A stretch of DNA of 64,000 bases from Nannocystis sp. RBIL2 (GCF_026626745.1 NZ_JAPNJW010000002.1:1126151-1190150); one strand, 5' to 3'. Positions 1,348 to 63,010 are shown, numbered from the stretch's first letter. Numbers and translations: made by a program. Notes: generated by a model not told the origin, from the letters alone.

Positions 1348-1553
1348 CCTTTCGGACATGCCCCAATAGACAGCTCTCGCACGCCCGGCCGACCGCGCGC
1401 CCCCCGCACTGAAACCGGGAGCTGTCCTTTGGACCAGCTCGACCGAGATCTTCGTCCGTCAGTCCCGGCCGCTAGATGACGGCGACCCAAGCGAGCGCGC
1501 CGCCGCAGGGTCTCCCCCGGGGCGGCGCACTGGCTCAATTTTCGACGCAGGAC

Positions 1554-2075
1554 TCAGTCGTCGCCGTAGTCGTCGTCGCGCCGCCGGCCGCCGCGACCGC
1601 CACGGCCACCGCCGCCGCCGCCGCCACGACCACCGCCGCCGCCGCCGCCGCGACCACCGCCGCCGCCGCCGCCGCCGCCATAGCCGCCGCCGCCGCCGCC
1701 ACGACCACCGCCGCCGCCGCCGAAGTCACGGCCGCCACCGCCGCCACCGCCACCGCGGGGACCACCGCCACCGCCCTGGAAGCCGCCCGACGGGGCACGC
1801 TCGACGAAGGGCCGCGAGGGCCGATCGCTGCGGGCGCGCTCGACCGCGGCATCGCAGCGGATGGTCCGCCCGTCAAGCACCGCGCCGTTCATCGCCTCGA
1901 GAGCGGCACGACCGGCCGTCTCATCGGCGAACGTCACGAACCCGAAACCACGGCTGCGCATGGTCTCCTTGTCCTTGACGACGATCGCCTCGTCGACCTT
2001 ACCGAAGGGTTCAAAGGCCGCGCGCAGGCTCTCGTCGCCCGTCGCCCACGCCAGTCCACCGACGAAAATTTTCAC
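1554..2075 (-). CDS. RRM-domain RNA-binding protein with Gly/Arg-rich (RGG) tail
   Basis: MKIFVGGLAWATGDESLRAAFEPFGKVDEAIVVKDKETMRSRGFGFVTF supplies the RNP2 and RNP1 motifs. The C-terminus is (G)n-R repeats encoded by GCC/GCG-rich DNA at 1560-1800. Confidence 0.85.
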   Translation of the reverse strand: MKIFVGGLAWATGDESLRAAFEPFGKVDEAIVVKDKETMRSRGFGFVTFADETAGRAALEAMNGAVLDGRTIRCDAAVERARSDRPSRPFVERAPSGGFQGGGGGPRGGGGGGGGRDFGGGGGGRGGGGGGYGGGGGGGGGRGGGGGGGRGGGGGGGRGGRGGRRRDDDYGDD

Positions 2076-2388
2076 TTCTGTCTCTCTCCTATTCTCTCTT
2101 CACTGCACGCCACGTCGGCCGTGGCTCGCGGCGCCCTGAGCGGGACCGCGTCGTTGCGTCGACACTCCACAAGCGACACGCCGGACGCACACGTGCGACG
2201 CGACCGGAGGGAGGCCGGCTGCGACCCGGCGGGCTCCGTGAGTGCCGATTGAGGTCATGACCAGGGGCAGGATCCGCCCTCGGCCCGGGCCCTGTCAACC
2301 TCCGCGAACCCCTCCGGCGGCGATTTCACCTCACGCGGCCGGGGCCTGGAATTCACCTCACCCCCTGGAAGTCGGCGGGCCGGCGGCC

Positions 2389-4425
2389 ATGCCGCGCCGA
2401 CCTCCACGGCCCGGTGGATCGCCTCGCAGGCCGGCGCACGCCGAGGTGGGCGTGTCCTCCCCCACAATTGCCGCGCCGGCGGCCCGGGCGGAGGTAGAGT
2501 CCCGCCCCGTGCCGATCGCAAGCCTGCGCCAGGTCGAAAAGAGCTACGGCGTCCGCCGCGTCCTCGCCGGCGTCAACCTCACCTTGATGACCGGCGAGCG
2601 CGTCGGGCTGGTCGGCAACAACGGCTCGGGAAAAACCACTCTGGCGCGGATCCTCGCCGGACTGGACGCCCCCGACGCCGGTGAAGTGGTCCTCCGCCGC
2701 GACGCCGCGATCGCCTACCTCGAGCAGGAGCCGCGCCTCCCACCCGGCCTCACCGCCCTCGAAGCCGTCCTCAGCGGCCTCGGCCAGTGGTCTGCCGCCC
2801 GCGCCCGCTACGACGCGGCCACCGGGAGCCTCGAGGGGGCCTCCGGGGCGGCGATCGACGCCCTGGTGGCCGAGCAGGCGGCCGCCGCCGCGGAGATCGA
2901 GCGCTGCGGAGGTTGGTCGCGGGCGGCGGAGGCCGAGTCGTACCTCGCGCGCCTCGGCGTCCGCGATCCCGCCGCGCCGACCGAGCGCCTCAGCGGCGGC
3001 GAGCGGCGCCGCGTCGCCCTCGCGGCCCTGCTGGCGCGCCGGCCCGACCTCGCGGTGCTCGACGAGCCGACCAACCACCTCGACGTCGCCGCGATCGAGT
3101 GGCTCGAGCGCCACCTCGCCGAGGACTACAGCGGCGCCGTCCTCCTCATCACCCACGATCGCTACATCCTCGACCGCGTGTGCACGCGGACCTTCGAGGT
3201 CGACCGCGGCGAGGTCTACGCCTACGACGGGGGCTTCGGCGCCTACCTCGAGGCCAAGGCCGAGCGCATGGCCCACGCCCAGCGCACCGAGGCCAACCGC
3301 CAGAACTTCCTCCGCCGCGAGCTCGAGTGGTTGCGGCGCCAGCCCAAGGCGCGGACCACCAAGCAGACCGCGCGCGTCAACCGGGCCGAGGCCGAGCTGG
3401 CCAAGTCGGGCCCGCAGCGCGACCGTCGGGTCGAGCTGTCCCTCGAGGCAGCTCGCAGCGGCAAGACGATCCTCGAGCTGCGCGGCGTCACCCTCGAGCT
3501 CGGCCGCGTGCTCGTCCGCGACTTCACCCTCGCGCTCAACCAGGGCGAGCGGATCGGCGTCGTCGGCCCCAACGGCAGCGGCAAGACCACCTTGCTGCGC
3601 TCGATCGTCGGCCAGCTTCCTCCGACCGCCGGCGAGGTCGTCCGCGGCAAGCACACCGCGATCGCCTACCTCGACCAGAACCGCTCCGGCCTCGACGACG
3701 ATCGCAGCGTCTACGACAACATCGCCGAGCGGCGCCGCGGCCTCGAGCTCGGCGGCGGTCACCCGCTCGACATCGCCCGCTACCTCGAGCGCTTCCTCTT
3801 CGACCCGTCCGCCTACGCCCAGAAGGTCGGCTCGCTGTCGGGCGGCGAGCGGGCTCGCGTCGCCCTCGCGGTGCTGTTGTCGGGCGCCTCCAACCTCGTC
3901 CTCCTCGACGAGCCGACCAACGACCTCGACGTCGCCACCCTCGGCGCGGTCGAGGAGATGCTGCTCGACTTCGCCGGCGCCGCGATCATCGTCACGCACG
4001 ATCGCTGGTTCCTCGATCGTGTCGCCACCTCGATCCTCGCCTTCGAGGGCGACGGCAAGGTCGTGCGCCACCACGGCAACTACAGCGACTACCTCGAGCG
4101 CCTGGCCGAGACCGAAGCGGCCGCCGAACCACAGCCCGTCGCACGAACCACGCCTGCGGCCGCCAAGGCCTCTGCGCCCGCCGCGAAGCGCGGCCTCAAC
4201 TACTCCGAGAAGCGCGAGCTCGAGGGGCTCCTCGGCAAGATCGAGGCCGCCGAGGGCGAGGTCCAGGAGCTCGAGGCCAAGCTCGGCGATCCCACCGTCT
4301 ACAGCGCCGGCAAGGACCAGGTCGCGGAGCTGGTGCGCAAGCTCGACACGGCCCGTCAGCGCGCCGCCGCCCTCGTCACGCGCTGGGAGGAGCTCGAGCA
4401 GCGGAGCGCGGACGCCGGGGCCTGA
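2389..4425 (+). CDS. ABC-F family ATPase (two ABC domains, Uup/EttA-like)
   Basis: Two Walker A motifs ([18 protein letters not shown]) and two LSGGE signature motifs, with a C-terminal coiled coil. The ORF opens at 2242 but the true start is probably ATG 2389 or GTG 2508; the N-terminus is uncertain. Confidence 0.85.
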
Positions 4426-4506
4426 CGTCGCGGCGCGGCCGGCGTCCCGCGCGTCCGCGGACTTTATCCGCTTGGGTGTCCGCGCAACTGCTTCTATCCT
4501 GCCCTC

Positions 4507-5877
4507 GTGCCCCGCCTCGCTCTGGTCGCGCCGTTCGCCCTCGTCCTCGCCTCAGGCCCCCTCCTCGTCGACACCGCGCAGGCCGGCCCGGTCCAGTTCG
4601 TCGAGCAGCGCAAGAACTTCATGGTGTTCGACGACGACGGCACCGTCGAGCACGCCAACTGGTTCTCGCGCACCGGCTTCTATAACGGCTACAACCCGCT
4701 CGAAGAGGGCTTCCTCGCCGCGCACCCGGACGACGCCCAGTTCATCGTCGTCTACTCGACCTTCAACCTCGTCGACGGCGTCGGCGCCTTCTATCAGGCG
4801 CTCGCCAACGACGTCGCCGGCATCGGCTACTCGCACGCCGCCGACTTCGACCCGGTGATCCCGGCCGAGTTCTTCGACGACACCCCGAACAGCCAGTTCA
4901 TCGGCATGCTGCACATGAACAACTGGCGGAAGTTCATCAAGACCGGCACCGAAGAGATCGACGACTGGTGGATCTCGCTGGTGTTCGGCCAGGAGCTGGG
5001 CCACGCGTGGCTGGCCTTCCCGCACGTCGCCGGCGGCGGCAACACCGAGCTGCTGCTCGGCCGCTCGCAGGCCCACTGGAACTTCTACATGCACACCAAC
5101 GGCTCGCCGGTCGAGGGCCACCGCTGGACCGACAACGGCGACGGCACCTTCACCGCGGACAAGCTCGACCAGTTCGAGTTCAGCGACCTCGACCTCTATC
5201 TCATGGGCCTCATGGACCCCTCCGAGGTGAAGCCGTGGTTCGTCATCGAGGACCCGCACGACTGCGTCGACTCCGCGCTGCCCAACCAGGCCTGCCCCGA
5301 ACCCAACTCGTTCCTCTTCAAGGCCGAGAGCTTCACCGTCAGCGGCACGCGGCGCGACGTCACCGTCGAAGAGGTGATCCAGGCCGAGGGCGAGCGCGTC
5401 CCCGCCTACCCCGACGCTCCCAACGAGTTCGGCATCTCCTTCGTCCTCCTCAAGCGCCCGGACGAGGTCCTGTGCGAGGAGGAGTACGCAGTCATCGACG
5501 AGATCGTCGACCGCTCGATCAATATGTGGGTCGGCCAGACCCGCGGCCGCGCCAACATCATCAACCGCACCTTCAGCGCCGACCCGATCCGCCCCGGCGT
5601 GTTCTGCGAGGCCGGCACCACCACCGGCAGCGACGACACTGGCGCCGATCCGACCGGCAGCGACGACACGGGCCCGACCGAGCCGACCACCACCGCCACC
5701 ACTGCTCCGACCACCTCGAGCAGCAGCAGCAGCGGCGGCCGCGACGAGGACAGCGACGGCGACACCAGCGGCAGCAACACCGACAGCGGCTGCGGCTGCC
5801 GCTCCCACGAGCCCGCCCCAGCCCTCGCCCTGCTGCTCGCCCTCGCTGCCATGCGTCGCCGCCGCGAACGCACCTGA
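4507..5877 (+). CDS. secreted protein with C-terminal MYXO-CTERM-type sorting signal
   Basis: N-terminal signal peptide ([26 protein letters not shown]). There is a Thr/Ser/Asp-rich linker, and the C-terminus is [29 protein letters not shown] (Cys motif, hydrophobic helix, Arg cluster). Confidence 0.7.
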
Positions 5878-6209
5878 CCGAAGCGACCGCGGGCGAAGGA
5901 CGTGAAGAGGCGCCTGTTCGGCGGCCAACCCTGGCCGTCGAACAGGCGCCGAGCAACGTGTCCCGAAGGACATCCTCCACCGAGACCGACAGTGTCGGCC
6001 CCCTCACGGCCGCAGCCGTGCATGGGATCGGCTGACCGACCGAGGCCGGCGTCCTACCGCGAGGTCCAGTCGGCAACACGTGAAGTCCAGCGCTCCGATC
6101 TTCGCTGGCCCCCGTCGATTGACCCCGAGCCTCACATGACCCGAAGGCCATGTCCCAAACTTTTTTTTTCACCCGCAGCGCCGCAGTGGCGCCTCACATG
6201 ACCTGAAGG

Positions 6210-6497
6210 TCAGATCGCCATCAGCACCGGCACCGGGTGCATGTGGAACGCGCCCGGCACCGGGCACGCCCCCACCCGCGCCGCGCGGCGGGCCGTGAAG
6301 TGCATGATGGTGGCGCGCAGCTCGTCGCTGTTCGGCTTGAGCAGCGTCGCCACGTACTGGTAGCCGATATCCTCGAAGTCGTCCTCCGGCTCTGCGTGGC
6401 ACAGATAGCCGCGGCGATCGAGCCAGAGAGTGCGATGGCCGTGGTACTGCGCGAGTTCATCGACGAGACGGGCGACCTGCGGTTCGAGCGACACCAT
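6210..6497 (-). CDS. hypothetical small protein
   Basis: ORF with internal ATG start (MVSLEPQVARLVDEL…). It lies tail-to-head with the BtuF-like gene. No recognisable family. Confidence 0.35.
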   Translation of the reverse strand: MVSLEPQVARLVDELAQYHGHRTLWLDRRGYLCHAEPEDDFEDIGYQYVATLLKPNSDELRATIMHFTARRAARVGACPVPGAFHMHPVPVLMAI

Positions 6498-7774: not shown

Positions 7775-8581
7775 ATGGAGATCTCGATCAAGGACGCCGC
7801 CGATTTGCTGGGCAAGAGCGAGCGCACCGTGCGGCACATGGCCCAGACCGGGCGCCTGCCTGCCCGCCGCGTCGGCTCGCGCTGGCTCATCGACCGCGAC
7901 GACCTCATGTCCGGCAAGTACAGCGGCCACGACGGCGACGACGCCGCGGCCGAGGCTGCCGAGACCGCCGAGGCCGAGGCGCCGGCGACCGACGTCCAGG
8001 AGGACAACTTCGACGACGCCGAGGATGCTTCGACCTCGGCCGAGCGCCCCCGCCTGCGGTTCGACCGCGCCCTGCCGCCGGGCACCCCCTCGGTGCGCGC
8101 GCTCGACAGCTTCCACATCGCGGCCGACCTGCTGGCCGAGCTCGGCGAGCTCCGCCGCGACCTCCGCGACGCCTCCCACCTCCGCGACGCCGAGCAGAAC
8201 CTGCGCGGCTTCATCCAGGCGCTGGCCGACGGCATCCACGCCGACCTCGGCGATCAGCCGGAGCGGTTCCGGGCCGCCCGCACCCAGGTGTGCGCCGCGC
8301 TGACCGACCTCATCCACTTCAACGTCACCCACGACAAGCCGGACCTGACCCCGCTCGTCGACCGCATCGAACACGAGCTGCTGAGCTCGTTGCAGGTCCT
8401 CATCGGCACCGCCGACGAGCGCTCGAGCTGGCGCTACCGCGTCCGCGGCCTCGCCGAGCGGACGGCCGCGCGCGTGTTCTCGCGCCTGCGCGGGATCGCC
8501 GGCGAGGGCCGCGTCGGCGCCCGCCTGGCCGCCCTCGAGGAGCGCTTCTTCGGCGCCTCCGCCCCCGTCGCGGTCAACTGA
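7775..8581 (+). CDS. DNA-binding protein with excisionase/MerR-type HTH
   Basis: ATG at 7775. MEISIKDAADLLGKSERTVRHMAQTGRLPARRVGSRWLI is an HTH_17-type motif; the rest is acidic and helical. Confidence 0.55.
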   Translation: MEISIKDAADLLGKSERTVRHMAQTGRLPARRVGSRWLIDRDDLMSGKYSGHDGDDAAAEAAETAEAEAPATDVQEDNFDDAEDASTSAERPRLRFDRALPPGTPSVRALDSFHIAADLLAELGELRRDLRDASHLRDAEQNLRGFIQALADGIHADLGDQPERFRAARTQVCAALTDLIHFNVTHDKPDLTPLVDRIEHELLSSLQVLIGTADERSSWRYRVRGLAERTAARVFSRLRGIAGEGRVGARLAALEERFFGASAPVAVN

Positions 8582-8738
8582 ACGTCGTCCTGGACGAGCG
8601 CGGTCGGGCAGGTCCTTCGGGACATGTCCGGCCGCACATGTTTTTAAAGTCAGGCATCGCGGGCGGCGCGCGCGCGATACGACCTTTTGACTTGTTCGTC
8701 CGCTCGACCCGGATCAGAACTCGGGCGGAGGAACCATC

Positions 8739-14774: not shown

Positions 14775-15099
14775 CCGCTTCGGGTGGCTCGCCGGCGCCA
14801 TGGTCCCCTCAAACTAGCACAGCCCCCGGGACGCGCCGAGAAACCGGTCCCCCGCCCCGGCCGCGAGGCGCCTGTCCCCAGAGACCGGTCCGGCCCAGGA
14901 GAGGCGCGAGGACGAAGCGTACAGCCGCAGTCGCGGCGGCCTTTCGCGCCGGAGCGCCGCGATCGATCGCCCGGAGGACCGAGGATGACGAGGGCGTCAC
15001 CCGCGACCTCCTGCTCGCGCCGCAGTACCCGCGGCCGATCGACCCGGCGAGAGGGAGCCGATCCCAGGATCGCGGCCCCCTTCCGCGCCGCCGCGATCA

Positions 15100-15430
15100 C
15101 GGCCGAGCGCCCGTGCGACACGAGGTCCCCGCGGTCGCGGCGGTCTCTCCGTTCGCGCCGCCGGACACGCCCTTGCGAGGCGAGGTCGATCCCGCCGTCG
15201 CGGCGGCCTCCCCGTTCGCGCCTTTACACGCGGCCGAGCGGTCCTGTGAAACGAGGACGCCCCCTGCACTCACGACGGTCTCCCTCCGCGCCGCGAGAAC
15301 GCGGCCGAGCGCTCCCGCGAGACGCTCGCGGCGGCCTCCCCGTTCGCGCCCGTACACGCAGTCGAGCGCTCCTGCGACACGAGGCCGATCTTCTCGGGAT
15401 CGCGGCGGCCTCCCCGTTCGCCCCGCCGTG
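15100..15430. repeat. degenerate ~60-bp direct repeat family (4-5 copies) in non-coding gap
   Basis: The core GTCGCGGCGGCCTCCCCGTTCGCGCC recurs at 15134, 15198, 15326 and 15399, each followed by a …CGAGCGNTCCTGNGANACGAGG module. Confidence 0.7.
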
Positions 15431-15783
15431 AATCGCTCGCGCGACGGCCGGCGCGCGAAGGATGGAACGCGAGCGTCGGCGCGATCGCGGCCCGCCTCGG
15501 GCCGATCACCAGCGCGCCGCTGTGGCCGCGGACCTGGGGCCATGCGGCACGCGGCGCGCGGGCAAGTGACAGTGGAAGCGCGCGACATGACCCTACAGAC
15601 ATGTCCGAAGGGCTCCCACGAAATCGCATCAGGTCGGCCCGCCCGCGATTCACCGTAGTGGACGTGGTTGCGGTCGAATTCGCAGAAGTGATCGGGGCTC
15701 GGGCGAAAATGTGGGCCGTCCGCGTGCGGACCCGAAAATGCACCGAGCGATAATGTTGCGACTGCTGTGCTCGCTTTTTCGGT

Positions 15784-15812
15784 TTGACAAGCACCGTCGG
15801 CACGGACAAGAA
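15784..15812 (+). promoter_or_regulatory. candidate sigma70-like promoter (TTGACA-N17/18-AAGAAT)
   Basis: TTGACA at 15784-15789 with an A/T-rich -10-like hexamer 17-18 bp downstream. This lies in an otherwise GC-rich gap. Confidence 0.3.
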
Positions 15813-15821
15813 TGGAAGCGT

Positions 15822-16018
15822 CGGTCGGTCCTCCTCTCTGCACCCCGGTGCACGGCTGCCGGCCGCGATTCAAGCCCGAGCATCTCGGTCTTGATAAGCC
15901 GGCAGTCTTCGGTCCTTCGCGGCTGAAGCGTGTACCGTGGTGAGAGGAGGCCCGATCGAATTCGAGGTGTGTTGTTGAGGCGTGAGCGGGCACGGATGAG
16001 GACCGTGCCCGCTTTTTT
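15822..16018 (+). ncRNA. candidate small RNA (~190-200 nt) with terminal closing helix and intrinsic terminator
   Basis: No coding ORF. The 5' GGTCCTCCTCTC (15836-47) is complementary to the 3' GAGAGGAGGCC (15939-49). The transcript ends in a GC hairpin GCGGGCACGG-atgaggacc-GTGCCCGC followed by TTTTTTT (15982-16025). Confidence 0.35.
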
Positions 16019-16025
16019 TCATGCT
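15982..16025 (+). terminator. Rho-independent terminator (stem-loop + T7)
   Basis: gagcgggcacggatgaggaccgtgcccgcttttttt: an 8-9 bp GC stem followed by 7 T residues, which is rare in this GC-rich DNA. Confidence 0.7.
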
Positions 16026-16141
16026 CGCGGTGGTTGTGCCTACATCGTGACCCGCGGTCCTGACCGGCTGTCACGTGGAGACTGCAGCCTGCCCCGATCG
16101 CGGCGACCTGCACGGGCCCAGGCCGCCGCGGGCGGGCCCGC

Positions 16142-18313
16142 TCACGGGGCCTTGAGCGTCACCGTGTAGTCGCCCGCGCCGCTGGCCGACACGACCTGCC
16201 AGGTGTAGTAGCCCGCGGTGCCCTGATAGTTGATGGACTCGTTGTTGGTCGGGCCCTCCGACTTGGCGACCTTGGCCCAGGCGGAGCCGTTCCACTTGTA
16301 GAGGTAGAGATCGAAGTCGGCCCCGGCCGGACCCGCGAGACAGCCGGTGTGCGCCCCGCTCTTGCTCGTGGAGTAGTACGAGCCGCTCGGCTGGAACTGC
16401 TCCTTGCCGCTGCCGCTCAGGTTGCCCTTGAAGGGCGTGCCCGAACAGGTCTGCCCGCCGCCGTCGCCGCCCCCGCCGTCGCCATTGGGGCCACCCGGCA
16501 CGCCCACCGCCGTCCACGCGGCATGGACCGCCGCGACCGCCTCGGCGTCGTAAAGCTCGGAGGCCGCCTGAGCCGTCGCGTCGCGAGCGTCCTGGAACGT
16601 CGCGTTGGAGTTGAGGTAGTTCGTCAGCGCGCGGTAGAAGATCTGCGCCGCCTTGTCGATGCCGAGCGCCGGCACCACCGTCGTCGTCTTGTTGCGCGGG
16701 TGCTTGCCCCCCTGCGACAGCAGGTAGAACGCCAGGTTGGCGATGCCCGAATTGATGTGGACGCCGCCGTTGTCCTGCTGACCGGTGTAGCGCTCCGGGT
16801 AGTAATCGTACGACTGCCCGTCCTGGGTCGGATTGGCCATGTAGCGCATCGCGTCATTGGCCACACCCGGGGTCCAGCAGGTCTCGGCGAGCAGCCAGGT
16901 CTTGGCCGACACGCCGTTCTTGAAGGCGTCGGCGGCCGCCGCCATGATGTCCGACATCGCCTCGTTGAGCGCGCCCGACTGGTTCTGGTAGACGAGGCTG
17001 GCCTCGTACTGCGTGACCGCGTGGGTCAGCTCGTGGGCCACCACGTCGAGGTCCTGCGCGAACGGGCTGGCGTAGTAGCCGTCGCCGTCGCCGTAGACCA
17101 TCTGCTGGCCGTTCCAGAACGCGTTGACGTAGTTCTTCGAGTAATGCACGGTCGAGTGGATGGTCGCGCCGGCGGCGTCGAAGCTGTCGCGGCCGAACTT
17201 GCTCACGTAGAAGTCGTAGACGACGCCCGAGAGGTCGTTGGCGGCCTGGACCACCTTGTCGTCGCTCGCGCCGCCCTCGCTGACGACCAGCTTGCCCGGC
17301 AGCTTGGTGCCGTTGTTGGCGTCGTAGACCTTGCGGTTCTTGGCGTGGTGGATCTGCGGGTGGCGGGCCACCATCTCGCCGCTCACGGCGTCCGCGAACA
17401 CGATGTCGCGCTGCGGCCCCTCCTCGTCCTCGTACTCGACCACCGCCTGCCAGGCCAGCCGCGGGCCGGCCTCGGTCACCACGTAGACGAGCTCGGGCAC
17501 GTCGACGCTGGCCCACTCGGCGGCGAGGCGGTCGGCCACGGCCTCGATCGCCTCGTCGGGATCGAGCGTCGGCGCCAGCGGCAGCGCCTCGGCCGGGACG
17601 ACGCGGCCGGTGACCGCCTGGACCTGCCCGCTGGCCGCGTCGGCGTGGACCGTCAGCTCGCCGCCGACCACCGGCAGGTCGTGGAGGTACTGCCGGAAGC
17701 GCACGTGGACCTTGCCGAGCGAGTCGGTGTGGTGGCGGACCGCCTCGAGGTCGGTCTCGTCGCCGAGGCGGAACACCGGCGCCATGTCGGCCAGCCAGCC
17801 GCGGGCGCTCTCCCGCACGTTGCCGCCGCCGGTCAGCGTCCCGAGGTCGCCGGCGATGAAGCGCGGCACGCCGGCCTCGTCGGCCTGCACCCGGTCGACC
17901 CGCGGCAGGCGACCGAGCGCCTGGCTCTGCGACCACACGAACGTCGCCGTCCCGCCCGCCGAGGTCGCGGCCTGGACCATCTCGCCGTCGAGCTCGAACG
18001 CGAAGTCGGCGGCCGCTCCGGCGGTCTGCACGCCCCAGCGCGCGCCGTGGCGGAGCAGCAGGTCCTGCACGAGCGCGGGCCGCTCGTCGCCGCTGCGCAC
18101 GGATACGCGGGTGAAATCGATCGGCCCGTCGGTCAACGCGAAGCGCACTGCCCCTTCGGACAGGTCGATCTCGAGGACCTCGCCTGGGCCGAGCGCCGCC
18201 ACGTCGTCGGCGGTGACGGTGCGAGACTCGGTTTCGACGGCGATTCCCCCCTCTTGGCAGGCGGACAGCAGACAGGCGGAGACGGCAGAGACGATGATGC
18301 GACGAGCGGACAT
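16142..18313 (-). CDS. M4 (thermolysin-family) zinc metalloprotease lipoprotein with C-terminal PPC domain
   Basis: Lipobox MSARRIIVSAVSACLLSAC. HEXXH motif (VVAHELTHAV) and third zinc ligand (NEAMSD). The C-terminal domain is pre-peptidase-like (…DFDLYLYKWNGSAW…YTWQVVSASGAGDYTVTL). Confidence 0.85.
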   Translation of the reverse strand: MSARRIIVSAVSACLLSACQEGGIAVETESRTVTADDVAALGPGEVLEIDLSEGAVRFALTDGPIDFTRVSVRSGDERPALVQDLLLRHGARWGVQTAGAAADFAFELDGEMVQAATSAGGTATFVWSQSQALGRLPRVDRVQADEAGVPRFIAGDLGTLTGGGNVRESARGWLADMAPVFRLGDETDLEAVRHHTDSLGKVHVRFRQYLHDLPVVGGELTVHADAASGQVQAVTGRVVPAEALPLAPTLDPDEAIEAVADRLAAEWASVDVPELVYVVTEAGPRLAWQAVVEYEDEEGPQRDIVFADAVSGEMVARHPQIHHAKNRKVYDANNGTKLPGKLVVSEGGASDDKVVQAANDLSGVVYDFYVSKFGRDSFDAAGATIHSTVHYSKNYVNAFWNGQQMVYGDGDGYYASPFAQDLDVVAHELTHAVTQYEASLVYQNQSGALNEAMSDIMAAAADAFKNGVSAKTWLLAETCWTPGVANDAMRYMANPTQDGQSYDYYPERYTGQQDNGGVHINSGIANLAFYLLSQGGKHPRNKTTTVVPALGIDKAAQIFYRALTNYLNSNATFQDARDATAQAASELYDAEAVAAVHAAWTAVGVPGGPNGDGGGGDGGGQTCSGTPFKGNLSGSGKEQFQPSGSYYSTSKSGAHTGCLAGPAGADFDLYLYKWNGSAWAKVAKSEGPTNNESINYQGTAGYYTWQVVSASGAGDYTVTLKAP

Positions 18314-29476: not shown

Positions 29477-29494
29477 AGCGCCGACGGGAAGTCC

Positions 29495-37500: not shown

Positions 37501-37514
37501 GCATTGCGACTTCG

Positions 37515-46404: not shown

Positions 46405-46490
46405 TGCCGGCTGTCCGCGAGGACAGCCGCACCTGTTCGAGAGGACAGCCTGCGCGGCGCTACGCCGCGCCTGCCCTTTCGGACAGCCTC
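46405..46490. repeat. GGCTGTCC-N4-GGACAGCC hairpin plus two further GGACAGCC copies in convergent gap
   Basis: ggctgtccgcgaggacagcc at 46409-46428 is a perfect 8-bp stem with a GNRA-type loop; ggacagcc recurs at 46443 and 46481. Confidence 0.8.
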
Positions 46491-47276
46491 AGCCCGCGCG
46501 GCCCTGCTGCAGCTCGGCGATCCGCTTCTTCGCCACGTTGTTGCTGAAGTCCGAGCAGCAGTCCATGCGGATGTAGGTCGACCACTCGTCGATCGCCTTC
46601 TGCGTCTCGCCCTTCGCCTCGTAGACCTGGGCCGCGCCGGCGTGGGCCGTCTTGTCGCCCTGGTACTTGATCATCGCCTTGGCGTAGGTCGTGAGCGCCT
46701 CGTCGAGCTTGCCCTGCTCGCGTAGCACGTCGCCGAGCTCGCTGTACACGAACTTGACCGCCTCGTCGTTCTTGATGACCTCGCGGAACACCGCCTCGGC
46801 CTGCTCGAACTGCTTCGCGCGGCGCAGCGCCTGGCCCTGGTGGAGCCCGTAGTTGCCGTTGTCGGGGTCGAGCTGCGCCGCCTTGCCCCACGACGCGGCC
46901 GCGTCGGCGTCTTTTTCGCTCTTCTCGAGCGCCGCGGCGCGGGTCGCGTGGTAGTCGGCCACGTCGCCCTTGGCGGCGATCGCCTTGTCGATCAGCTCGA
47001 TCGCCTTGGCCGGGTCCTTGTCGCCGTACAGCCGCACCTTCGCCAGCAGCGCCTGCGCCTCCGGATTGCTGGGCTCGACCTCGAGCACGCGCTTCAGCAT
47101 GTTCTCGGCCTCTTGCCACTTCTCGTCGTTGACGCGCGCGGCCGCGTTGGCGAGGTCCTTCTTCATCTGGGCCGCCTGCTCGGCCGGATCGACCGCGGGC
47201 GTGGAGTTGCACGCCGGTGCGAGGGCCGAGGCGGCAGTCAGGACGACGGTCAGGGCGCAGGCGGCAAAACGGGGCA
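46489..47276 (-). CDS. TPR-repeat lipoprotein
   Basis: GGAGG RBS before GTG 47276. Lipobox LTAASALAPAC. TPR-like repeats follow. Confidence 0.7.
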
Positions 47277-47445
47277 CAGAGGGACCTCCAGCGACTTCGG
47301 TATCACGCGGCGGCCCGCCGGCACAAGGGCGGCCGCTCGCCTGCCGGCCCGGGCCGCGCGCGTCCTTCGATCGCTCGCTCGCGGACCCCTCGCGCCGGTG
47401 GCCGTTTTGGCGCGCGGATGATACGCTGGCCGCCTTCCGAGGCCG

Positions 47446-48711
47446 ATGTCCGGACGCGACTCCCACTCCGAAGACCCGCGCGGGCCCCGGCCGCTGCACC
47501 CGCACGTCGAGCTCGCCGAGCCGCCCGACGACCCCGGCTTGGAGCTTGGCGCCGACATCGCCGATCCCGGCCTCTCGGGGTTGTTGCGCCGCGGGGTCAA
47601 GGCCGCGATCGCGCGCTGGGCCGTGCTCCGACGACCCGCCGCCGAGTGGCCGCGCCCGCAGGACGAGGCCCGCCACGCCTGGGACGGCCGGCCGCACTTC
47701 GCCGAGGAGTTCGTGTTCGTCGGCGTGCAGCCCGAGCTCGCCGTGCTCGCGCGCCTCGAGTGGTTGCCGGACCGCGACGCGCACCGCGTCTGGCTCACCC
47801 TCTTCACGCCCACAGCGATCTACTGCCTCCCCGGCGGCCAGGCCCTGCTGCGCGGCGACGGCGAGCGCGGCTGGTCCGTGGGCGGCCTCGGCTTCGACTG
47901 CGTCGAGCCGCTGCGCACCTGGACCCTGCGCTACCGCGGCACCTTGCACGTCCACGACCCGCGCGGCCGGCCGGTGCGCCCCGCCGGCGACGCCCCCGCC
48001 GAGTCGATCGAGGCCCGCATCGACCTCACCTTCCTCGCCGGCCTCTTGCCGTTCGTCCCCGGCACCGACGACGACCCCGACCTGCTCGCGCGTCAGCTCG
48101 GCGCTGCCGCGTGGGACACCCGCTTGCTCCGCGCAGTGCGCCGCCACCCGCTCCGCGGCTACGTCCAGGCCGGCGATCTTCACGGCACGATCACCCTCGG
48201 TAGCGACCTGCGGGCTTTCGGCGGCGCTGCCCTGCGCGTCCACAATTGGGGCGTGCGTGACTGGGGCGCCAGCGACGCCGCCATGCAGTGCTTCGCCACT
48301 CTCGGCCCGCTGCGGACGTGGGTGCACACCGCCCGCTTCCCGTGGGTGAGCCTGTCCGGCGGCTTCGTCCAGCGGCCCGGCGGCGTCGTCCCTATCCGCG
48401 ACCTCGGGGTCACGCAGGAGCGCCGCCCCGGCCGCGCGCCCGCTCGCACCGGCCTCGCCGTCGAGGCCCCCGGCGGCCCGCTCGCCCTCGAGGCCGAGAC
48501 CGTCGCCGAGCTCCCGCTCGACATGGACGGCCGCGGCCACCTCGACATCGCCCTCGTGCGCGTCCACGCCCGCGGCGAACGCCCGCCCGCCCGCGCCGAG
48601 GGCCCCCGCCTCGTCAGCGGCCCCGCGCGCCCGCACGAGGAGCCGCACGGCTGGGGCCTCTGCTTCACCCAACGCCGCCTGCTCCCGCGCCCCACGCCGC
48701 GCACCGGCTGA
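47446..48711 (+). CDS. hypothetical protein
   Basis: Long ORF with coding-like GC3 skew. No recognised domain. Confidence 0.45.
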   Translation: MSGRDSHSEDPRGPRPLHPHVELAEPPDDPGLELGADIADPGLSGLLRRGVKAAIARWAVLRRPAAEWPRPQDEARHAWDGRPHFAEEFVFVGVQPELAVLARLEWLPDRDAHRVWLTLFTPTAIYCLPGGQALLRGDGERGWSVGGLGFDCVEPLRTWTLRYRGTLHVHDPRGRPVRPAGDAPAESIEARIDLTFLAGLLPFVPGTDDDPDLLARQLGAAAWDTRLLRAVRRHPLRGYVQAGDLHGTITLGSDLRAFGGAALRVHNWGVRDWGASDAAMQCFATLGPLRTWVHTARFPWVSLSGGFVQRPGGVVPIRDLGVTQERRPGRAPARTGLAVEAPGGPLALEAETVAELPLDMDGRGHLDIALVRVHARGERPPARAEGPRLVSGPARPHEEPHGWGLCFTQRRLLPRPTPRTG

Positions 48712-48794
48712 TCTGTCCGTTCGGGCATGTCCTCTGGACCACGCCTCGGCACGGCCTCTTTTTTCACCCGGCGCAGCCTGCTCCGCGCACCGGA

Positions 48795-48890
48795 TGGCAT
48801 GTCCATTCAGGCATGTCCGATGAACCATGCCTCATCAAGCATGTCTTATCGAACATGCCCAAGAGAGCATGTTCTCAAGCGCATGCCATC
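48795..48890. repeat. 7-unit array of CATG(Y)C motifs with strict 13-15 bp period
   Basis: CATG at 48798, 48812, 48827, 48840, 48854, 48868 and 48882: ggcatgtcc/ggcatgtcc/ccatgcctc/gcatgtctt/acatgccc/gcatgttc/gcatgcca. Confidence 0.85.
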
Positions 48891-49022
48891 GCCCCCTGCA
48901 TCGCTCCGGCGCGCGCGTCGCCTCGCGCGCCTCCTCGGTCGCGTCGCCGCGTCACGCCCCCACGGAACACCACGGCCGTCGTGCCCGCACGCCTCACGCG
49001 GCCAACCTGCTAATCGCTGCGC

Positions 49023-56699: not shown

Positions 56700-57200
56700 C
56701 TCGTCTGGCCGACGCGCGAACGCTCGCCGACGCTCGCTCGACCGCGCGAGGCAACGCCCTCATCGACGCCCGCTCGACGCGCGAGCGCAAGCCCTCTCCG
56801 ACACTCGCTGGACGCGCGGGCGCATCAACCTCGTCGACGCTCGCTCGACCGCGCGAGCGCAGGCCCTCGTCGACGCTCGTTGGACGCGCGGGCGCATCGT
56901 CCGCTTCGGCGCTCGCTCGACCGCGCGAGCACAACGCCTTCATCGCCACTCACTCCGGCGCGAGCACACCTTCCTCGTCGACGCACGCTGAGCGCGCGAG
57001 CGCGAGCGCTCATCGCCACTCGGGCGCGAGCGCGAGCTCTCATCGCCACTCACTCAAGCTCGAGAGCTCTCCACTCGAGCTCGAGCACTCGCCTTTCATC
57101 GCCGCTCACGCGAGCGCGAGCGCATCGTCTCGTCCGCACACCCACGAGCGCATCGTCCTCATAGCGACTCACTCGAACACCGCGCATCGTCATCGACGAC
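56700..57200. repeat. degenerate 36/72-bp tandem minisatellite with internal CGCTCG…CGAGCG hairpins
   Basis: GCTCGCTCGACCGCGCGAGC recurs at 56731, 56838 and 56910, and the sub-unit CG(C/T)T(C/G)GACGCGCG(A/G)GCGCA recurs at 56771, 56805 and 56877. Further degenerate copies extend to ~57190. Confidence 0.8.
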
Positions 57201-57293: not shown

Positions 57294-58082
57294 TCATGCT
57301 CGCGTGCGCGAGCGGGATCCAGTTTTCGGCGGACGGGTGAGCGAGGGTTTCTGGCGGCTTCGGTACGACTCGCCTTCGATGACGAGGTCGTAGGCGTTGC
57401 TGGTGAAGCGATCGATCGCTGCCTGGGCGCGGACGGGGTCGGCGAAGACTGCGAGCCATTCGTCAGGGCCACGGTTCGAGGTGACGATGATCGAGCCGTG
57501 GCGGTGACGCTCGGTGAAGATTTCGTAGGCGTCGCGGCTCTCGGTCGCGTCCATCGCGTCGAGGCCGAAGTCGTCGAGGATCAGCACGTCGACGGCGAGG
57601 ATCTTGCGCAGCTCGGCGTCGTAGGAGCCGTCGAGTCGAGCGTGGCGGAGGTTCTTGAGCAATCGATCACAGCGGTAGGCGAGGACACTGTATTGACGGC
57701 GGCAGGCGGCGTTGCCCAGGGCGTGCGCGAGGAAAGTCTTGCCGACACCGACGGGGCCGACGAGCGCGACGTGAGCGCGAGCCTCGACGAAACGCAGCGA
57801 GCAGAGCTCGGCCCACAGCTCTTGATCGAAGTGGACCCGAGTGGTGCTGTCCCATCCCTCGAGCTGGTGCTCGGGATCGAGACGCGCTTTCTGGCCGCGG
57901 AGCTGGGCGGAGATGCTGTCCCGGCGGCTGACCTCGTCGGTGAGCAGCGTCAGCAGGAAGTCCTGGTGAGGGACCTTCTGCTGGCGTGCGAGGGCGAGCC
58001 GCTCGGGCAGCGTCGATAGCAGGGGGCTGAGTTTGAGTCGCTTGAGGATGGCCTTAAGGTCATGTGAGATGGTATCGGTCAT
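57294..58082 (-). CDS. istB: IS21-family transposition helper ATPase IstB
   Basis: Walker A (GPVGVGKTFLA) and Walker B (DVLILDDFG). Typical IstB N-terminus. Confidence 0.9.
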   Translation of the reverse strand: MTDTISHDLKAILKRLKLSPLLSTLPERLALARQQKVPHQDFLLTLLTDEVSRRDSISAQLRGQKARLDPEHQLEGWDSTTRVHFDQELWAELCSLRFVEARAHVALVGPVGVGKTFLAHALGNAACRRQYSVLAYRCDRLLKNLRHARLDGSYDAELRKILAVDVLILDDFGLDAMDATESRDAYEIFTERHRHGSIIVTSNRGPDEWLAVFADPVRAQAAIDRFTSNAYDLVIEGESYRSRQKPSLTRPPKTGSRSRTRA

Positions 58083-59646
58083 GACGGTTCTCCATGCTTG
58101 GTGTTGGCCGAGAGCGCGTAGATCTGCGCGGGTCGGAGGAATCTCGCCGGCGGTGTCGGCCGGTCGAGGGGGATGGGTTGGGGCTTCACGTCGCGCTCGA
58201 CCATGGCGCGAAGGCGCTTCAGACTCAGCATGTCGGCCGCGAGTGCGATGCCGCAGCAGCGATCGACGACGGCGACGCCGTGGCGCTCGGCGAGGCCACG
58301 CACGCCGTGGACGGTGCGCATGCTGGTCCAAGGCAGCGGGCCGGACAGCAGTCGCCGTACGTACGCGCCGATGTTGGGGCCGAGCTCGTCGGCCTGCTTC
58401 TGCAAGAATTCGATATCACGCATCGCGTAGGCTCGTTTCTCCTTCGGGAAGTCCTCAGGGTTGATGCTGCGGCCGCCGGGCGGCAGCCGCCGACAGATCC
58501 GGATCAGCGTGCTCCGATCGTAGAAGCGGACGCTGCTGCGATCGACTCGAGCCTGCAGCGTGCGACCGATCAGCCGCGTGGGCATCGAGTACAGTGCGCG
58601 CTCGACCTGGACGAAGTGATCGCGCGCGACCTTCGGCGTGCACCACCGCGGCACGTCGTAGGGCTGCTCCGGCGCCGGCAGCAGCACCGGCGCCTCGACA
58701 TTGAGAAAGTGCTCGCGCGGCATCCGACCGGTGGTGCTGTGGCGGTGCGCGCCGTATTCGTCCCGGCACCATCGCTCGGCACGCTCCCGTGCGGCCGCGA
58801 GGTCGCGGATCCGTTCACCGCCGAAGCAGTCGTCACGGACGTCGCGGACCGCTCGCTCGACTCGCGCCTTGTCCTGCGGCCTGCGCACCCGCGCGACGTC
58901 GATCACGAAGCCGCGTGCCTGCGCGTACTCGAGGAAGGCCTCGCACAGCCGCGGCTCGATCGGGTCGGCGCGCTGGACGATCGCCTTGAGGTTGTCGGGG
59001 ATCAGCGTCCGGAAGACGCCGCCGTAGAACGCCCAGGCGGCCTCGCACGCTGCGATCACCTCCTCGACGGTCTCGCGCTCGATCGGATAGACGAAGCGGT
59101 AGCGCGACACGTTCGGCGAGAAGACGAGGACCTTGATCTTGCGCCGCACGCCGCTGCCGTCGGCTCGTACATCCCGACACTGCCGGGATCGCTCTGCAGC
59201 TCGTCGCCGGGCTTGCCATCGACGAGCGGCACCGTCGCCGCCTTCTTGCCGAAGCCGAGTTGCTGCGTGGCAAAGCGGTGCAGCGTCGCGTACGGCACGA
59301 CGACTCCCTGCCGCTGCAGTAGCTTGCGGATCTTGGTCAGCCGCACGTCGTGCTGGAGATGCCCCTCGATGAAGGTCCGCTCGCGCTCGCATGCCCGCCA
59401 CGCCTCGCCATGCTCGTGCGGCACCGGCTTCTTCAGCTCGGCGATCACGGCGTCCAGCCGCGCATCCGTCAGCTGCTCGCGGCCACCGCCGGCGACGACG
59501 CCGTGCGCCTCACCGACCTCGAGGTAGCGCCGCACGGTCTTCGGATCGAGACGCAACTGCGCGGCGATCCGCTTCTTGGCGACGCCGAGAAGCCTCAGCC
59601 TTAGAACTTCCTTGATCTCGATCATCGTGACCTCTCGGTACGCCAT
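58079..59646 (-). pseudogene. istA: IS21-family transposase IstA, disrupted by a frameshift near 59130-59170
   Basis: The N-terminal HTH part (59056-59646; MIEIKEVLRLRLLGVAKKRIAAQLRLDPKTVRRYL) and the C-terminal DDE part (58079-59401; …KIKVLVFSPNVSRYRFVY…) lie in different frames. The conserved ELQVDFG motif is degenerate (ELQSDPG). Confidence 0.8.
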
Positions 59647-60059
59647 GGGCTCCTCGCGCCCGGCTTCCTCGCCGGACTCGGGAGCGGGGTACCCGCTCGG
59701 TCACGCAGGGGGGAAAGGTGGTGAGAAACTCAGCCCCCGGCAGGGGGGAAAGATGCTGAGAAACTCGGTCCCCAGAGGGGGGAAAGGTGGTGAGAAATTC
59801 GCCCCCGAAGGGGGGATTGCTGCTGAGAACTGACACGCACCGAGTTCTCGATCGATGCTCGCCCGCTCGGCCCGCCTCGAGCGCCTCGGGCTCTCGTTCG
59901 AGGCTCGATCGATCGCGTGAACGCCTCGCCTCCTACTCCTCGCGCCAGCGTCACGTATCACCCGATTTGCGGGCCTCGTGTACGACCTGTCGCGCCGCGC
60001 CCGAAGCCGGCGCGCGAGCCGACCCCGATGCATGACGAGCGCCGCGATGGGCTCCGAGC

Positions 60060-60270
60060 GCCGCGCTCGCTTCGGACAAAAGTCCGACGAGCTCGTGCGT
60101 CGCGCTCGCATCGGACACAAGTCCGGCGAACCCATGCGCTGCGATCGCAATACACCTCGCGGACATCAGTCCGCCGCGCGGCCAGCCACGCACCACCCGA
60201 CCCGCACTCCTTGCAGCGACGTCATCCGGACATCAGTCCGCGAACCGACCGCGACATCGGTCCGCGATCG
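60060..60270. repeat. array of 5 CGGACA-N4-GTCCG hairpin repeats upstream of lipoprotein gene
   Basis: cggacaaaagtccg (60073), cggacacaagtccg (60113), cggacatcagtccg (60162 and 60223), and gacatcggtccg (60253). Confidence 0.8.
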
Positions 60271-60335
60271 GACCCCATGCCCTCGCGCCGGCACGCATCG
60301 GGCCGCGCGCGCGGGCACCTGCTACTGTGAGCGCA

Positions 60336-61186
60336 TGTTCGACGCGCAGCTCCGCGGCCCCGGCGTCACTGCCGCCCGGCTCGTCTCTGTCCTCGCGTTC
60401 CTGTCCCTCGGGGCATGTCAGCGCGTCCCCTACGACGACGACGACACCGCCAGCAACCAGGGCGGCGACGAGGGCGACACGGACACCGACGGCGGGGGCG
60501 ACACGCAGCCGACCACGGGAGCGCCCGAGCCGCCGCCGGACCTCGTCCCGGTCTACGACTGTGAACCGTCCGGAACTCCCGCATGTCCCGAAGGACAGAA
60601 GTGCACCGCGGTCAGCGAGGGCGGCCTGCAGAACCACTTCAAGTGCGTACCCGACGACAGCGCGATCCTGCCGCTCGAGCCGTGCGTGCCTGCGCCCGAG
60701 AGCGGACAGGACGGGTGCGGCGCCGGCACCGTGTGTCTCTCGCCGACGCAGGACGATCCGACCTCCGGCCTGTGTTTCCCGATCTGCCGCAACGACATCG
60801 ACTGCGACCCGGGCCTGTGCGTCACCAGTCCGTTCAGCGGCACGACCTACTGCGCGGACAGCTGTGACCCTCTCGTGGCCATCTGTCCGCCGAGCCTCGG
60901 CTGCCGCCAGGGCTCCGATCGATTCGTCTGCGAGATGCTGCTCGACATCGACATGGGCACCGAGGGCACCAATTGCTCGGAGTTCAACGGCCGCGGCTGC
61001 GCCCCCACGTACGTGTGCATGCCGGGGGCGCTGGTGCCGAATTGCGGCTCGAGCAGCTGCTGCACCTCGACCTGCGCCACGAACGAGGGCGACGCGCAGT
61101 GCGCGTCGCCCTCCCTGTGTGAACCGCTGTTTCCGAGCCCCGCGCCCGGGTTCGAGAGCATCGGGGCGTGTTTCGTGCCGGCTTAG
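60336..61186 (+). CDS. large Cys-rich lipoprotein (EGF-like/disulfide-rich repeats)
   Basis: Lipobox LAFLSLGAC, an Asp/Gly-rich linker, and then about 40 Cys in repeats of the CxxGxxC type. Confidence 0.65.
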
Positions 61187-61803: not shown

Positions 61804-62075
61804 TCCTCATGACTAGCAGGTTTTTTTGCCTGACGGAACCTTGGATTTCGCCGGAGGCGCAACTTGGAACAAGGTTCGTAACCCCCAAAAATGACGTTCA
61901 GCTAGAAAAATGCCAGCCTCGGGGGATGGCTGATTTCCGCTGTTTTGTCGCCAGGTTATTCGATATTACACGACATGTCAGGCGAACCCTGATGACCCGG
62001 TCCCGGCCGCGTCCTCAGTGAGATCTCGCCACCCCCTTCAGAGAGCGCCCGAGGGCGCCGGAAAGAGTTCCCCGC

Positions 62076-62942
62076 GTGGCCACTTTCGACCCCGAGCTCC
62101 GACTCGTCCTCTCGCTCGCCCGCGAGGCCGGCGCCATCGCCCTGGCCTATCAGACAGGTGGTGCCGACGTCATGCAGGCCCAGGACAAGCCTGACGACGC
62201 TGGCCCGGTCACTCGTGCGGACACCGAGATCAACGCGCGCCTGGTCGCTGCGCTTCGCGCGGCCTTCCCTGGCGACGCGGTCGTCGCCGAGGAGTCCGCC
62301 GACGACGCCGCCGCAGCCGCCGACGTCTCGCGCTGCTGGTACGTCGACCCGATCGACGGCACCGCCGAGTACGCCCGCGGCGAGAGCTGCTGGGCGATCC
62401 AGATCGGCCTCTGCATCGGCGGCGAACCCGTCCTCGGCGTGGTCTACGAGGCCGGCGCGGCGCGCCTCTCGTGGGGCATCTGCACGCCCGATCGGCGCGA
62501 GGCGTTCGTCCTCGACGACAGCGGCGCGGCCACCCCGCTGCGTGCCAGCGGTCGCTCGCTCGCCGAGCTACGCCTCGTCAGCAGCCTGAGTCACGCCTCC
62601 CCGAAGACCCTCGAGGTCATGCAGGTGCTCGGCATCCCGCCGGAGCGCAACCTCCGACTCGGCTCAGTCGGCGTGAAGGTGGGCACCATCGCCCGCGGCG
62701 AGGCCGACCTTTACGTCCACCCGCGCAGCGGCACCAAGCTGTGGGACACCTGCGCGCCGTGGGCCCTGCTACGCGCCGTCGGCGGCGTCATCACCGACCT
62801 GTGGGGCCATCCACTGATCTACGACCCGCGTCGGCTCGGCCACGACAATGGTTTGGTCGCCTCGCACGGCGCGCACCACGACGACATCCTCGCGGCCATC
62901 CGTCCGCTCGTCGACGCCTGGTACCGCTCGCCACTCGCATGA
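62076..62942 (+). CDS. inositol monophosphatase/CysQ-family phosphatase
   Basis: GTG start. IMPase motifs (…AEESAD…, WYVDPIDGTAEY, WDTCAP). Confidence 0.8.
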   Translation: MATFDPELRLVLSLAREAGAIALAYQTGGADVMQAQDKPDDAGPVTRADTEINARLVAALRAAFPGDAVVAEESADDAAAAADVSRCWYVDPIDGTAEYARGESCWAIQIGLCIGGEPVLGVVYEAGAARLSWGICTPDRREAFVLDDSGAATPLRASGRSLAELRLVSSLSHASPKTLEVMQVLGIPPERNLRLGSVGVKVGTIARGEADLYVHPRSGTKLWDTCAPWALLRAVGGVITDLWGHPLIYDPRRLGHDNGLVASHGAHHDDILAAIRPLVDAWYRSPLA

Positions 62943-62944
62943 CC

Positions 62945-63010
62945 TTGCGGACAGGTGTCCTGGCACATGTTCTAGCGGACATGTGTCCTCGAGCCTGTCC
63001 TTGCGGGCAT
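62945..63010. repeat. cluster of GGACA-N2-TGTCC-type palindromes in convergent gap
   Basis: ggacaggtgtcc, ggacatgtgtcc and gcgggcatgcccgc (a perfect 14-bp palindrome). Confidence 0.8.

Follow-up and report, generated by a model that had tools for sequence, protein, structure and literature searches.

The 64,000-nucleotide stretch of Nannocystis sp. RBIL2 analysed here (GCF_026626745.1, NZ_JAPNJW010000002.1:1126151-1190150; hereafter the window) carries a family of short palindromes built on GGACA/TGTCC. The palindromic decamer GGRCATGYCC is set at exact steps of 14 bp, separated by four free nucleotides, and these arrays lie just behind stop codons, above all between convergent genes. It is considered almost certain that this lattice is, all in all, real, lineage-specific, anchored at gene 3' ends and constrained.

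Counting in the window showed that the motif was strongly over-represented. GGACATGTCC was found in 6 copies (0.05 expected from dinucleotide-preserving shuffles), and the hairpin-type pattern TGTCC-N4-GGACA was also found in 6 copies (0.03 expected). In an unbiased k-mer screen with an order-3 Markov model, GGACATG/CATGTCC was the most enriched non-singleton 7-mer (41 copies, 11.5 expected), and the octamer ranking was topped by GGACATGT and GACATGTC; the latter occurred 16 times against 2.7 expected. The shuffle and Markov counts bore out an initial annotation, made from the sequence alone, that had called the AT-centred decamer over-represented; the excess of decamer and hairpin is real and stronger than was claimed there. 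The sites of that annotation were placed correctly to within a few bases, with 4457 and 61970 only marginal members, and its figure of more than 50 copies holds under a loose definition only. Counted strictly, with each decamer taken once, there were about 35 CATG-core sites (an estimate from the site list) and 6 hairpin-type sites, and the motif occurred about once per 1.5 kb. The variant CATGTCC-N4-GGACATG, which had also been listed, had no exact copy in the window. An artefact of chance or composition in a 71% GC genome, for which nothing speaks except that skewed genomes are generally prone to k-mer artefacts, was ruled out by the shuffle and Markov controls, the 14-bp periodicity and the conservation at orthologous positions, and its probability is regarded as negligible.

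Phasing of the units and position at gene ends

The unit was the two-fold symmetric decamer GGRCATGYCC with independent R/Y degeneracy, and the lattice consisted of this decamer and a free 4-nt spacer (GGAC-AT-GTCC-N4-GGAC-AT-GTCC) in arrays of 2-7 units at exactly 14 bp. Written in rows of 14 nt, the arrays (e.g., 37513-37573, 48793-48892, and 29488-29568) took the form of 2-7 repeats of nnGGRCATGYCCnn, the spacers being unrelated. The distances between CATG cores in the window were 14 bp (20 pairs), 28 bp (11), and 42 bp (11), with a further peak at 56 bp, while 13 and 15 bp were represented by 0-2 pairs. In 218 kb of Nannocystis loci the distances were 14 bp (155), 28 bp (86), and 42 bp (48), with 3-4 pairs at 13 and 15 bp; each of these loci was chosen for an array, and the distance baseline is therefore inflated. 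The window and 37 Nannocystis loci (354 kb) contained GGAC-N2-GTCC 56 times, N2 being AT in 44. GTCC-N4-GGAC was counted 82 times, whereas spacers of N3 and N5 between these half-sites gave 15 and 3 copies; the N2 and N4 patterns both echoed at +14 and +28. Because the half-sites alternate between N2 and N4 and echo at these distances, the decamer and the "split hairpin" are two views of one periodic structure. The initial annotation had taken the sites as dispersed and overlooked the strict 14-bp phasing, which is their most diagnostic feature.

The 14-column profile showed only a weak A/T preference outside GGRCATGYCC, and the spacers were diverse in sequence and fixed in length at 4. Since conservation is confined to the cores, Tandem Repeats Finder detected no more than weak rows of period 14 or 28. 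The counts at positions -1:+1 of the unit were A/T 80, A/C 51, G/T 61, and G/C 12 (odds ratio 0.31, p 9e-4, bootstrap confidence interval excluding 0). Units of the GGGCATGCCC type were depleted, and every unit retained at least one ACATG half. Isolated full decamers had no 3' bias (8/10 in coding DNA, 0/10 in convergent gaps), so that the 3'-end element needs at least two units; an isolated lattice unit, being a 10-bp zero-loop palindrome, cannot fold.

Elements were present in 8/11 convergent, 1/10 divergent, and 3/19 tandem gaps of the window, and its coding DNA had 0.17 sites/kb. For the window and the 37 loci together, the density was 9.7 sites/kb in convergent gaps (33/49 regions with a site), 2.4-3.4 sites/kb in tandem gaps (36/125), 0.37 sites/kb in divergent gaps (6/47), and 0.23 sites/kb in coding DNA, about 40-fold below that of convergent gaps. 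The enrichment at convergent 3' ends proposed by the initial annotation was thus confirmed at both scales. Excess and convergent-gap bias, the genome-wide absence of which that annotation had named as grounds against the family, were both seen in the window. The first core mostly lay 10-25 nt past the stop codon. The arrays of tandem gaps hugged the upstream stop at a median of 19 nt, and the next start was a median of 127 nt away, even where hundreds of bases were free. Several arrays occupied an entire convergent gap or overlapped a stop codon.

Lineage distribution and conservation among strains

A scan of one genome per species (185,579 species) with a pattern of 18 specified bases, made up of three CATGTC cores in phase, returned at least 112 loci. 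Among the matches listed, 37 came from Nannocystis/Nannocystaceae, namely from N. pusilla, N. punicea, N. bainbridge, N. radixulma, N. exedens, two Nannocystis metagenome-assembled genomes (MAGs), and one Nannocystaceae MAG. Per 8 kb, the median number of heptamers was 8 in Nannocystis and 1 in the other listed matches, and all 8 non-Nannocystis outliers inspected were isolated perfect minisatellites and unrelated; the matches in viral contigs (9) were rejected as minisatellites of the same kind. Two purT loci of more distant Nannocystaceae had no motif enrichment. The repeat family is specific to Nannocystis; relatives such as Myxococcus lack the motif. Rfam at gathering thresholds gave no match in the window, the window contained no tRNAs, and no description of the motif, of a myxobacterial repetitive extragenic palindrome (REP) with its REP-associated tyrosine transposase (RAYT), or of Nannocystis palindromes was found in the literature searched.

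The PurT protein of the window (36304-37500) was 100% identical to that of Nannocystis sp. ILAH1 and 97-99% identical to those of N. pusilla and N. punicea. The window was compared with four syntenic genomes, L117 and L118 (99% PurT identity), L002 (N. pusilla, 97%), and L001 (N. punicea, 98%). All orthologous convergent gaps retained elements in all five genomes, and the number of units, the spacers and the exact positions turned over fast. The array 3' of purT had four units in the same phase in the five genomes with zero indels; its 8-nt cores differed by 6-22% (0% between L117 and L118, the closest strains) and its 4-nt spacers by 25-75% (6% between L117 and L118). The divergent AraC/arginase gap, used as a control, was 13-18% different, with 6-9 gap events per ~400 bp. 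The third-codon positions of purT were rejected as a neutral yardstick because they are too constrained (95% GC), and intergenic controls were used instead. In the FadL/AraC gap, three cores were invariant over four genomes while the whole gap was 26-31% different. The comparison showed purifying selection on cores and phase, with drifting spacers.

Turnover was also visible in single gaps. The cyclase/kinase gap (29488-29568) bore arrays in all five genomes, and the gap holding the 48793-48892 array had a different 6-unit array in L002. In the arginase/TPR gap, where the window and L002 had a single GGCTGTCC-GCGA-GGACAGCC hairpin, 3-4 hairpins were found in L117, L118, and L001. The hairpins of L001 include a CATG-type unit, and hairpin and lattice are therefore interconverting subtypes. 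The arrays at L040, L043, and L075 were young, perfect tandem repeats of 14 bp, which shows growth by duplication of whole units. The hairpin at 44985-45006 had an invariant stem over four genomes; its loop TCAA was changed to TCGA in L117, and indels were present in the sequence to its left. This element could be a true operator between the genes of the AraC-family regulator and arginase.

Two further observations were made on these loci. A two-gene cassette (37736-40095), encoding a protein with the repeated peptide (E/Q)DMSxGAG and a radical-SAM/SPASM enzyme, was present in the window, L001, L117, and L118 and absent from N. pusilla L002, and its indel boundary fell within the gap behind purT that bears the arrays; the cassette may be of a type resembling ribosomally synthesised and post-translationally modified peptides, and the arrays may be prone to recombination. 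At L103 5504-5835 (N. pusilla Na p29), a 41-bp tandem repeat of 7 copies carried CACCTGTCC-N4-GGACACCCGACC in each copy and shared the GTCC-N4-GGAC core.

Double-stranded DNA site, RNA hairpin or selfish repeat

A gene-end lattice read by a protein is tentatively favoured as the likeliest mechanism; both the reader and its function we infer from sequence features. A symmetric consensus, conservation of sequence and not of pairs, dependence on two or more units, a fixed period, and symmetry independent of transcription direction are together the standard signature of a cooperative symmetric dimer on double-stranded DNA. Each decamer would be read by a two-fold symmetric protein dimer, and the dimers would bind cooperatively along the lattice. 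The step of 14 bp corresponds to about 1 1/3 helical turns, and three units (42 bp) would make four turns and so end on the face where they began. The bound lattice would form a gene-end module that could block or terminate read-through between neighbouring or convergent genes; it could also recruit topoisomerase or nucleoid proteins where transcription-driven supercoils collide. Slippage, by whole units of 14 bp, would both lengthen and shorten the arrays. A dedicated Nannocystis gene-boundary system, in which a sequence-specific, two-fold symmetric protein polymerising on the lattice behind ORFs would insulate transcription, terminate it as a roadblock, or manage supercoils between convergent genes and would largely replace hairpin-plus-U-tract terminators, is judged unlikely.

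Adjacent units could instead pair in RNA or single-stranded DNA into GC-rich stem-loops close behind the ORF, which would serve as bidirectional terminators lacking a U-tract or as 3' stabilisers against exonucleases; this explanation is judged rather unlikely. Compensatory covariation was found neither within units nor between adjacent units, and 35% of neighbours had a mismatch at Y(+1):R(-1'), the pair at the centre of the putative 5-bp stem. The -1:+1 association was negative, as a threshold on total binding energy predicts; pairing would give the reverse sign. Where a gap is transcribed in one direction only, folding was equally good for sense and antisense (11 vs 11), G.U pairs were not favoured over A.C (57 vs 46), and the two halves of the unit were equally conserved (p 0.78), so that the unit is symmetric even where one strand is transcribed; these orientation and strand tests were small, with 21-22 arrays. 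The N4 spacing was far stricter than loop thermodynamics demands, none of the arrays (0/62) was followed by a T-run (at least 4 T within 14 nt 3'), some arrays hardly folded (e.g., -6.7 kcal/mol), and RNAalifold found no covariation in the FadL/AraC gap. An RNA structure with covariation was therefore rejected for units, adjacent units and the FadL/AraC gap, and a directional CATGTC element following the orientation of the upstream gene was rejected by the strand and symmetry tests. The DNA-level role proposed by the initial annotation is supported by the symmetry in one-direction gaps, the lack of covariation and of strand asymmetry, and the conservation as sequence.

Several results weigh on the other side. 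The arrays folded better than shuffles on both strands (z -3.7 to -6.3), which is automatic for tandem palindromes. The loops of stand-alone TGTCC-N4-GGACA elements were UUCG or GNRA (either strand) in 30% of cases against 6.8% expected (p 5e-5), and some of the stand-alone stems reached 12-16 bp; only this subtype folds by itself. Part of the family, at least the stand-alone subtype, is thus shaped by single-strand folding. The loops at lattice junctions were of these types in 14% against 6.7% expected (p 0.06), and the tetraloop hairpins described in the initial annotation therefore stand for the stand-alone subtype and not for the lattice. The 10-25 nt between stop and first unit is the behaviour of a terminator or 3' RNA hairpin, for which a DNA-binding protein has no obvious need. 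A consensus terminator scan found canonical terminators in the window at chance level, which leaves room for the elements themselves to be working terminators, and palindromy would serve both transcripts of a convergent gap. The gene calls behind all positional results came from a home-made model of GC content at third codon positions (GC3) and codon log-odds, corrected against the source annotations. Besides the four syntenic loci, the window is the sole sequence that was not selected for arrays, and absolute densities elsewhere are inflated; this selection has no obvious effect on how the gap types compare with one another, and the same differences are seen in the window by itself. The DNA sampled amounted to about 3% of a genome.

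A selfish or neutral repeat, either a REP-like element mobilised by a RAYT or a slippage-prone 14-bp minisatellite tolerated in 3' gaps, would have no host function and is considered improbable. It would account for a family confined to one genus, for the fast turnover of unit number and position between strains, and for young perfect tandem arrays and the local rise in hairpin number in the arginase/TPR gap (1 to 3-4); REPs are moreover classically tolerated in 3' and convergent gaps. However, the cores stayed invariant amid flanking DNA that was 26-31% diverged, the spacers were near saturation while the arrays remained free of indels (the control gap had its 6-9 gap events per ~400 bp), elements were kept in all orthologous convergent gaps of five genomes, arrays in tandem gaps hugged the upstream stop despite hundreds of free bases, and the logo had no conserved GTAG-like 5' tetranucleotide. 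A DNA uptake or genome-tagging sequence, as the DNA uptake sequence (DUS) of Neisseria or the uptake signal sequence (USS) of Haemophilus, many of which form inverted pairs within terminators, is very improbable. The motif is short, strongly over-represented (~1 per 1.5 kb), lineage-specific, and often behind genes, as such a sequence would be; but DUS and USS are non-palindromic and frequent in genes, whereas coding density here was ~40-fold lower, and an uptake bias leaves the strict 14-bp arrays and the rarity of isolated copies unexplained. The readings as protein-bound lattice, RNA hairpin and selfish repeat are not fully exclusive, since the REPs of E. coli do several of these things at once.

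Catalogue of elements and comparison with known systems

The elements of the window are listed in the table.

Table. Positions (window coordinates) and surroundings of the palindromic elements; ORF, open reading frame; CDS, coding sequence.
Element	Position	Strand	Surroundings and remarks
Single unit GGACATGCCC	1354-1363		7 nt past stop of ORF 643-1347(+), convergent gap
Stand-alone hairpin-type cgTGTCC-CGAA-GGACAtc	5957-5972		Convergent gap 5877-6210
Two phased units CACATGACC-CGAA-GGCCATGTCCC, then T9 run	6133-6172		Related hairpin at 6195-6210
GGTCC-TTCG-GGACATGTCC and phased degenerate unit GCACATGTTTTT	8611-8645		~30 nt past stop of ORF 7775-8581(+)
Two phased units GACATGACC, GACATGTCC	15583-15609		Gap 14801-16142
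Perfect 8-bp hairpin GGCTGTCC-TTCG-GGACAGCC	20800-20822		Stem edge 20822, 8 nt from stop of ORF 20830-22935(-)
Array, 5 lattice positions, 4 exact CATG cores	29488-29568		Nearly fills 97-bp cyclase/kinase convergent gap
4-unit array	37513-37573		Starts 13 nt past purT stop
Three cores GGACATGTC, GACATGTCC, GCCATG; spacings 13 and 14	37646-37686		~50 nt from stop of ORF 37736-39052(-)
In-CDS lattice, two exact cores 42 bp apart	38778-38836	-	Encodes repeated peptide (E/Q)DMSxGAG; third copy at 37973
Three cores ~40 bp apart	43778-43872		FadL/AraC convergent gap
Hairpin-type ACATGTCC-TCAA-GGACAT	44985-45006		Divergent gap between AraC-family regulator and arginase genes; the window's only divergent-gap element
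Hairpin-type cluster GGCTGTCC-GCGA-GGACAGCC and two more GGACAGCC	46407-46490		Fills arginase/TPR convergent gap
One core and 7-unit array at exact 14 bp (48793-48892)	48721-48892		Core 12 nt past stop of ORF 47446-48711(+)
Array, 6 lattice positions, 28-bp super-period	62933-63018		Overlaps stop of ORF 62076-62942(+), fills convergent gap

The protein encoded over the in-CDS lattice is a conserved hypothetical protein. Copies inside coding sequences had been said to encode D-M-S, which is true for three in-frame copies only, all in this one protein. A recurrent asymmetric variant, aCCTGTCC-N4-GGACATCCTcc, was found in the window at 5960 and 32357 and at L029 3216, L043 6681, and L075 5498; its outer flanks were conserved and non-complementary, which suggests a further sub-family. 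The long minus-strand ORF of the gene-model conflict at 46489-48831, with TPR matches in its C-terminal part only, overlapped the plus-strand ORF 47446-48711; the latter was adopted, having the higher GC3 (0.94) and being annotated as a 421-aa gene in L002. A textbook intrinsic terminator with a 12-bp stem and a T-run was present at 15984-16014 (+), in a 1.3-kb stretch (14801-16142) without a called gene, where the caller may have overlooked a gene or RNA on the plus strand.

The initial annotation had placed all patterns in one family. This holds for the lattice and the TGTCC-N4-GGACA hairpins, which interconvert, but not for its CGGACA-N4-GTCCG variant, which is truly CGGACA-N3-GTCCG and forms an unrelated local cluster (60073-60264). 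This pattern was rejected as a member because the lattice junction has its half-sites the other way round and the pattern was not enriched in the 354 kb of Nannocystis DNA; only one other match was found among 116 loci. The cluster (60070-60266) consisted of five 14-bp palindromes, one of them imperfect, 24-67 bp apart, placed between the end of an IS21 element and ORF 60335-61186(+), and may be a local operator array. The IS21-family insertion sequence (57294-59850, minus strand) encoded IstB (57294-58082) and an IstA split by a frameshift into a helix-turn-helix part (59056-59646) and a part with the rve and Mu-transposase C-terminal domains (58079-59149); its terminal repeats comprised three and a half 35-bp copies (59704-59829). 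Just past its IstB end was a 72-bp tandem repeat (56720-57050, 3-3.7 copies, ~80% identity). A 23-bp tandem repeat (36128-36194, 2.9 copies, 95% identity) was located in the 311-bp gap upstream of purT.

Comparison with known repeats showed that the Nannocystis elements resemble the REPs and bacterial interspersed mosaic elements (BIMEs) of enterobacteria and pseudomonads in being dispersed, lineage-specific, extragenic palindromes 3' of genes and between convergent genes, and in forming regular arrays whose copy number varies between strains (here 2-7 units at 14 bp). REPs are mobilised by the RAYT (Y1) transposase, and BIMEs bind gyrase and IHF and affect mRNA 3' ends. However, a REP is a 20-40 nt imperfect self-folding palindrome, whereas the Nannocystis unit is a 10-bp zero-loop palindrome; a REP has a 5' GTAG/GTGG tetranucleotide, the cleavage signal of the RAYT, and none was present in the 14-column profile; and the lattice was conserved as sequence, not as pairing. 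Membership of the REP/BIME class fails on two defining features, the self-folding unit and the GTAG-type signal. The likeness points to a REP/BIME-like role of the lattice at gene ends, these elements having in enterobacteria the part proposed above for the bound module.

The operator arrays of ribbon-helix-helix proteins are the closest mechanistic analogue, which does not imply that the reader itself is a ribbon-helix-helix protein. The met-boxes of MetJ (AGACGTCT x2-5), the heptads of omega protein and the iterons of ParR/CopG are likewise phased palindromic boxes that take one dimer per box cooperatively, and the Nannocystis boxes were also strictly phased, palindromic, and conserved as sequence without pairing covariation. 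The known arrays differ in that they occupy few promoters or partition sites at a period of 7-11 bp, whereas the Nannocystis period is 14 bp and 8/11 convergent gaps of the window are occupied. HIP1 (GCGATCGC) of cyanobacteria is similarly a short perfect palindrome hugely over-represented in one lineage, for which we know of no agreed function. HIP1 is unphased and occurs in coding and non-coding DNA, whereas the Nannocystis motif is ~40-fold depleted in coding DNA and forms 14-bp arrays at 3' ends; a HIP1-like class was rejected on this exclusion from genes and on the phasing. The TRIT motif of Mycobacterium tuberculosis and the DUS pairs of Neisseria are hairpins with a conserved stem after many ORFs, as is the stand-alone GGCTGTCC-GNGA/TTCG-GGACAGCC subtype, but the Nannocystis elements had no U-tract (0/62), the lattice had no pairing constraint, and coding copies were rare. 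The class of intrinsic terminators was rejected for want of a U-tract, and that of DNA uptake sequences because the motif is palindromic and rare in genes (0.23/kb).

Bacterial chromatin proteins such as GapR and CdbA can likewise mark many loci. GapR of Caulobacter is found at the 3' ends of transcribed genes on overtwisted DNA and, unlike the lattice, has no sequence motif. CdbA is a ribbon-helix-helix nucleoid protein of Myxococcus with >500 sites; it recognises a GC-rich direct repeat whose halves are 4 bp apart, only ~35% of its peaks fall in intergenic DNA, and a bias toward 3' ends or convergent gaps is not reported (PMC7156744). CdbA was rejected as the reader, since motif type and distribution differ from those of GGRCATGYCC. 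Dispersed, lineage-specific extragenic palindromes at gene ends are already known as a kind of element. For conserved decamers set by free spacers into a rigid 14-bp lattice behind genes, no described counterpart was found in the literature searched, and we know of none.

It is an open question how bacteria of very high GC content and few canonical terminators close off their transcription units, and to our knowledge the myxobacteria, with their genomes of 12-13 Mb, are almost unexplored in this respect. The lattice is an easily recognised, sequence-defined element behind a large share of the genes in one genus, with clear signs of selection on sequence and phase. If it is bound as double-stranded DNA, bacteria would have a gene-end signal of a new kind; an action in RNA would define terminators or stabilisers of a class that needs no U-tract. 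In both cases the motif is of practical use for annotating operon ends in Nannocystis and is a candidate insulator part for the engineering of myxobacterial natural-product clusters.

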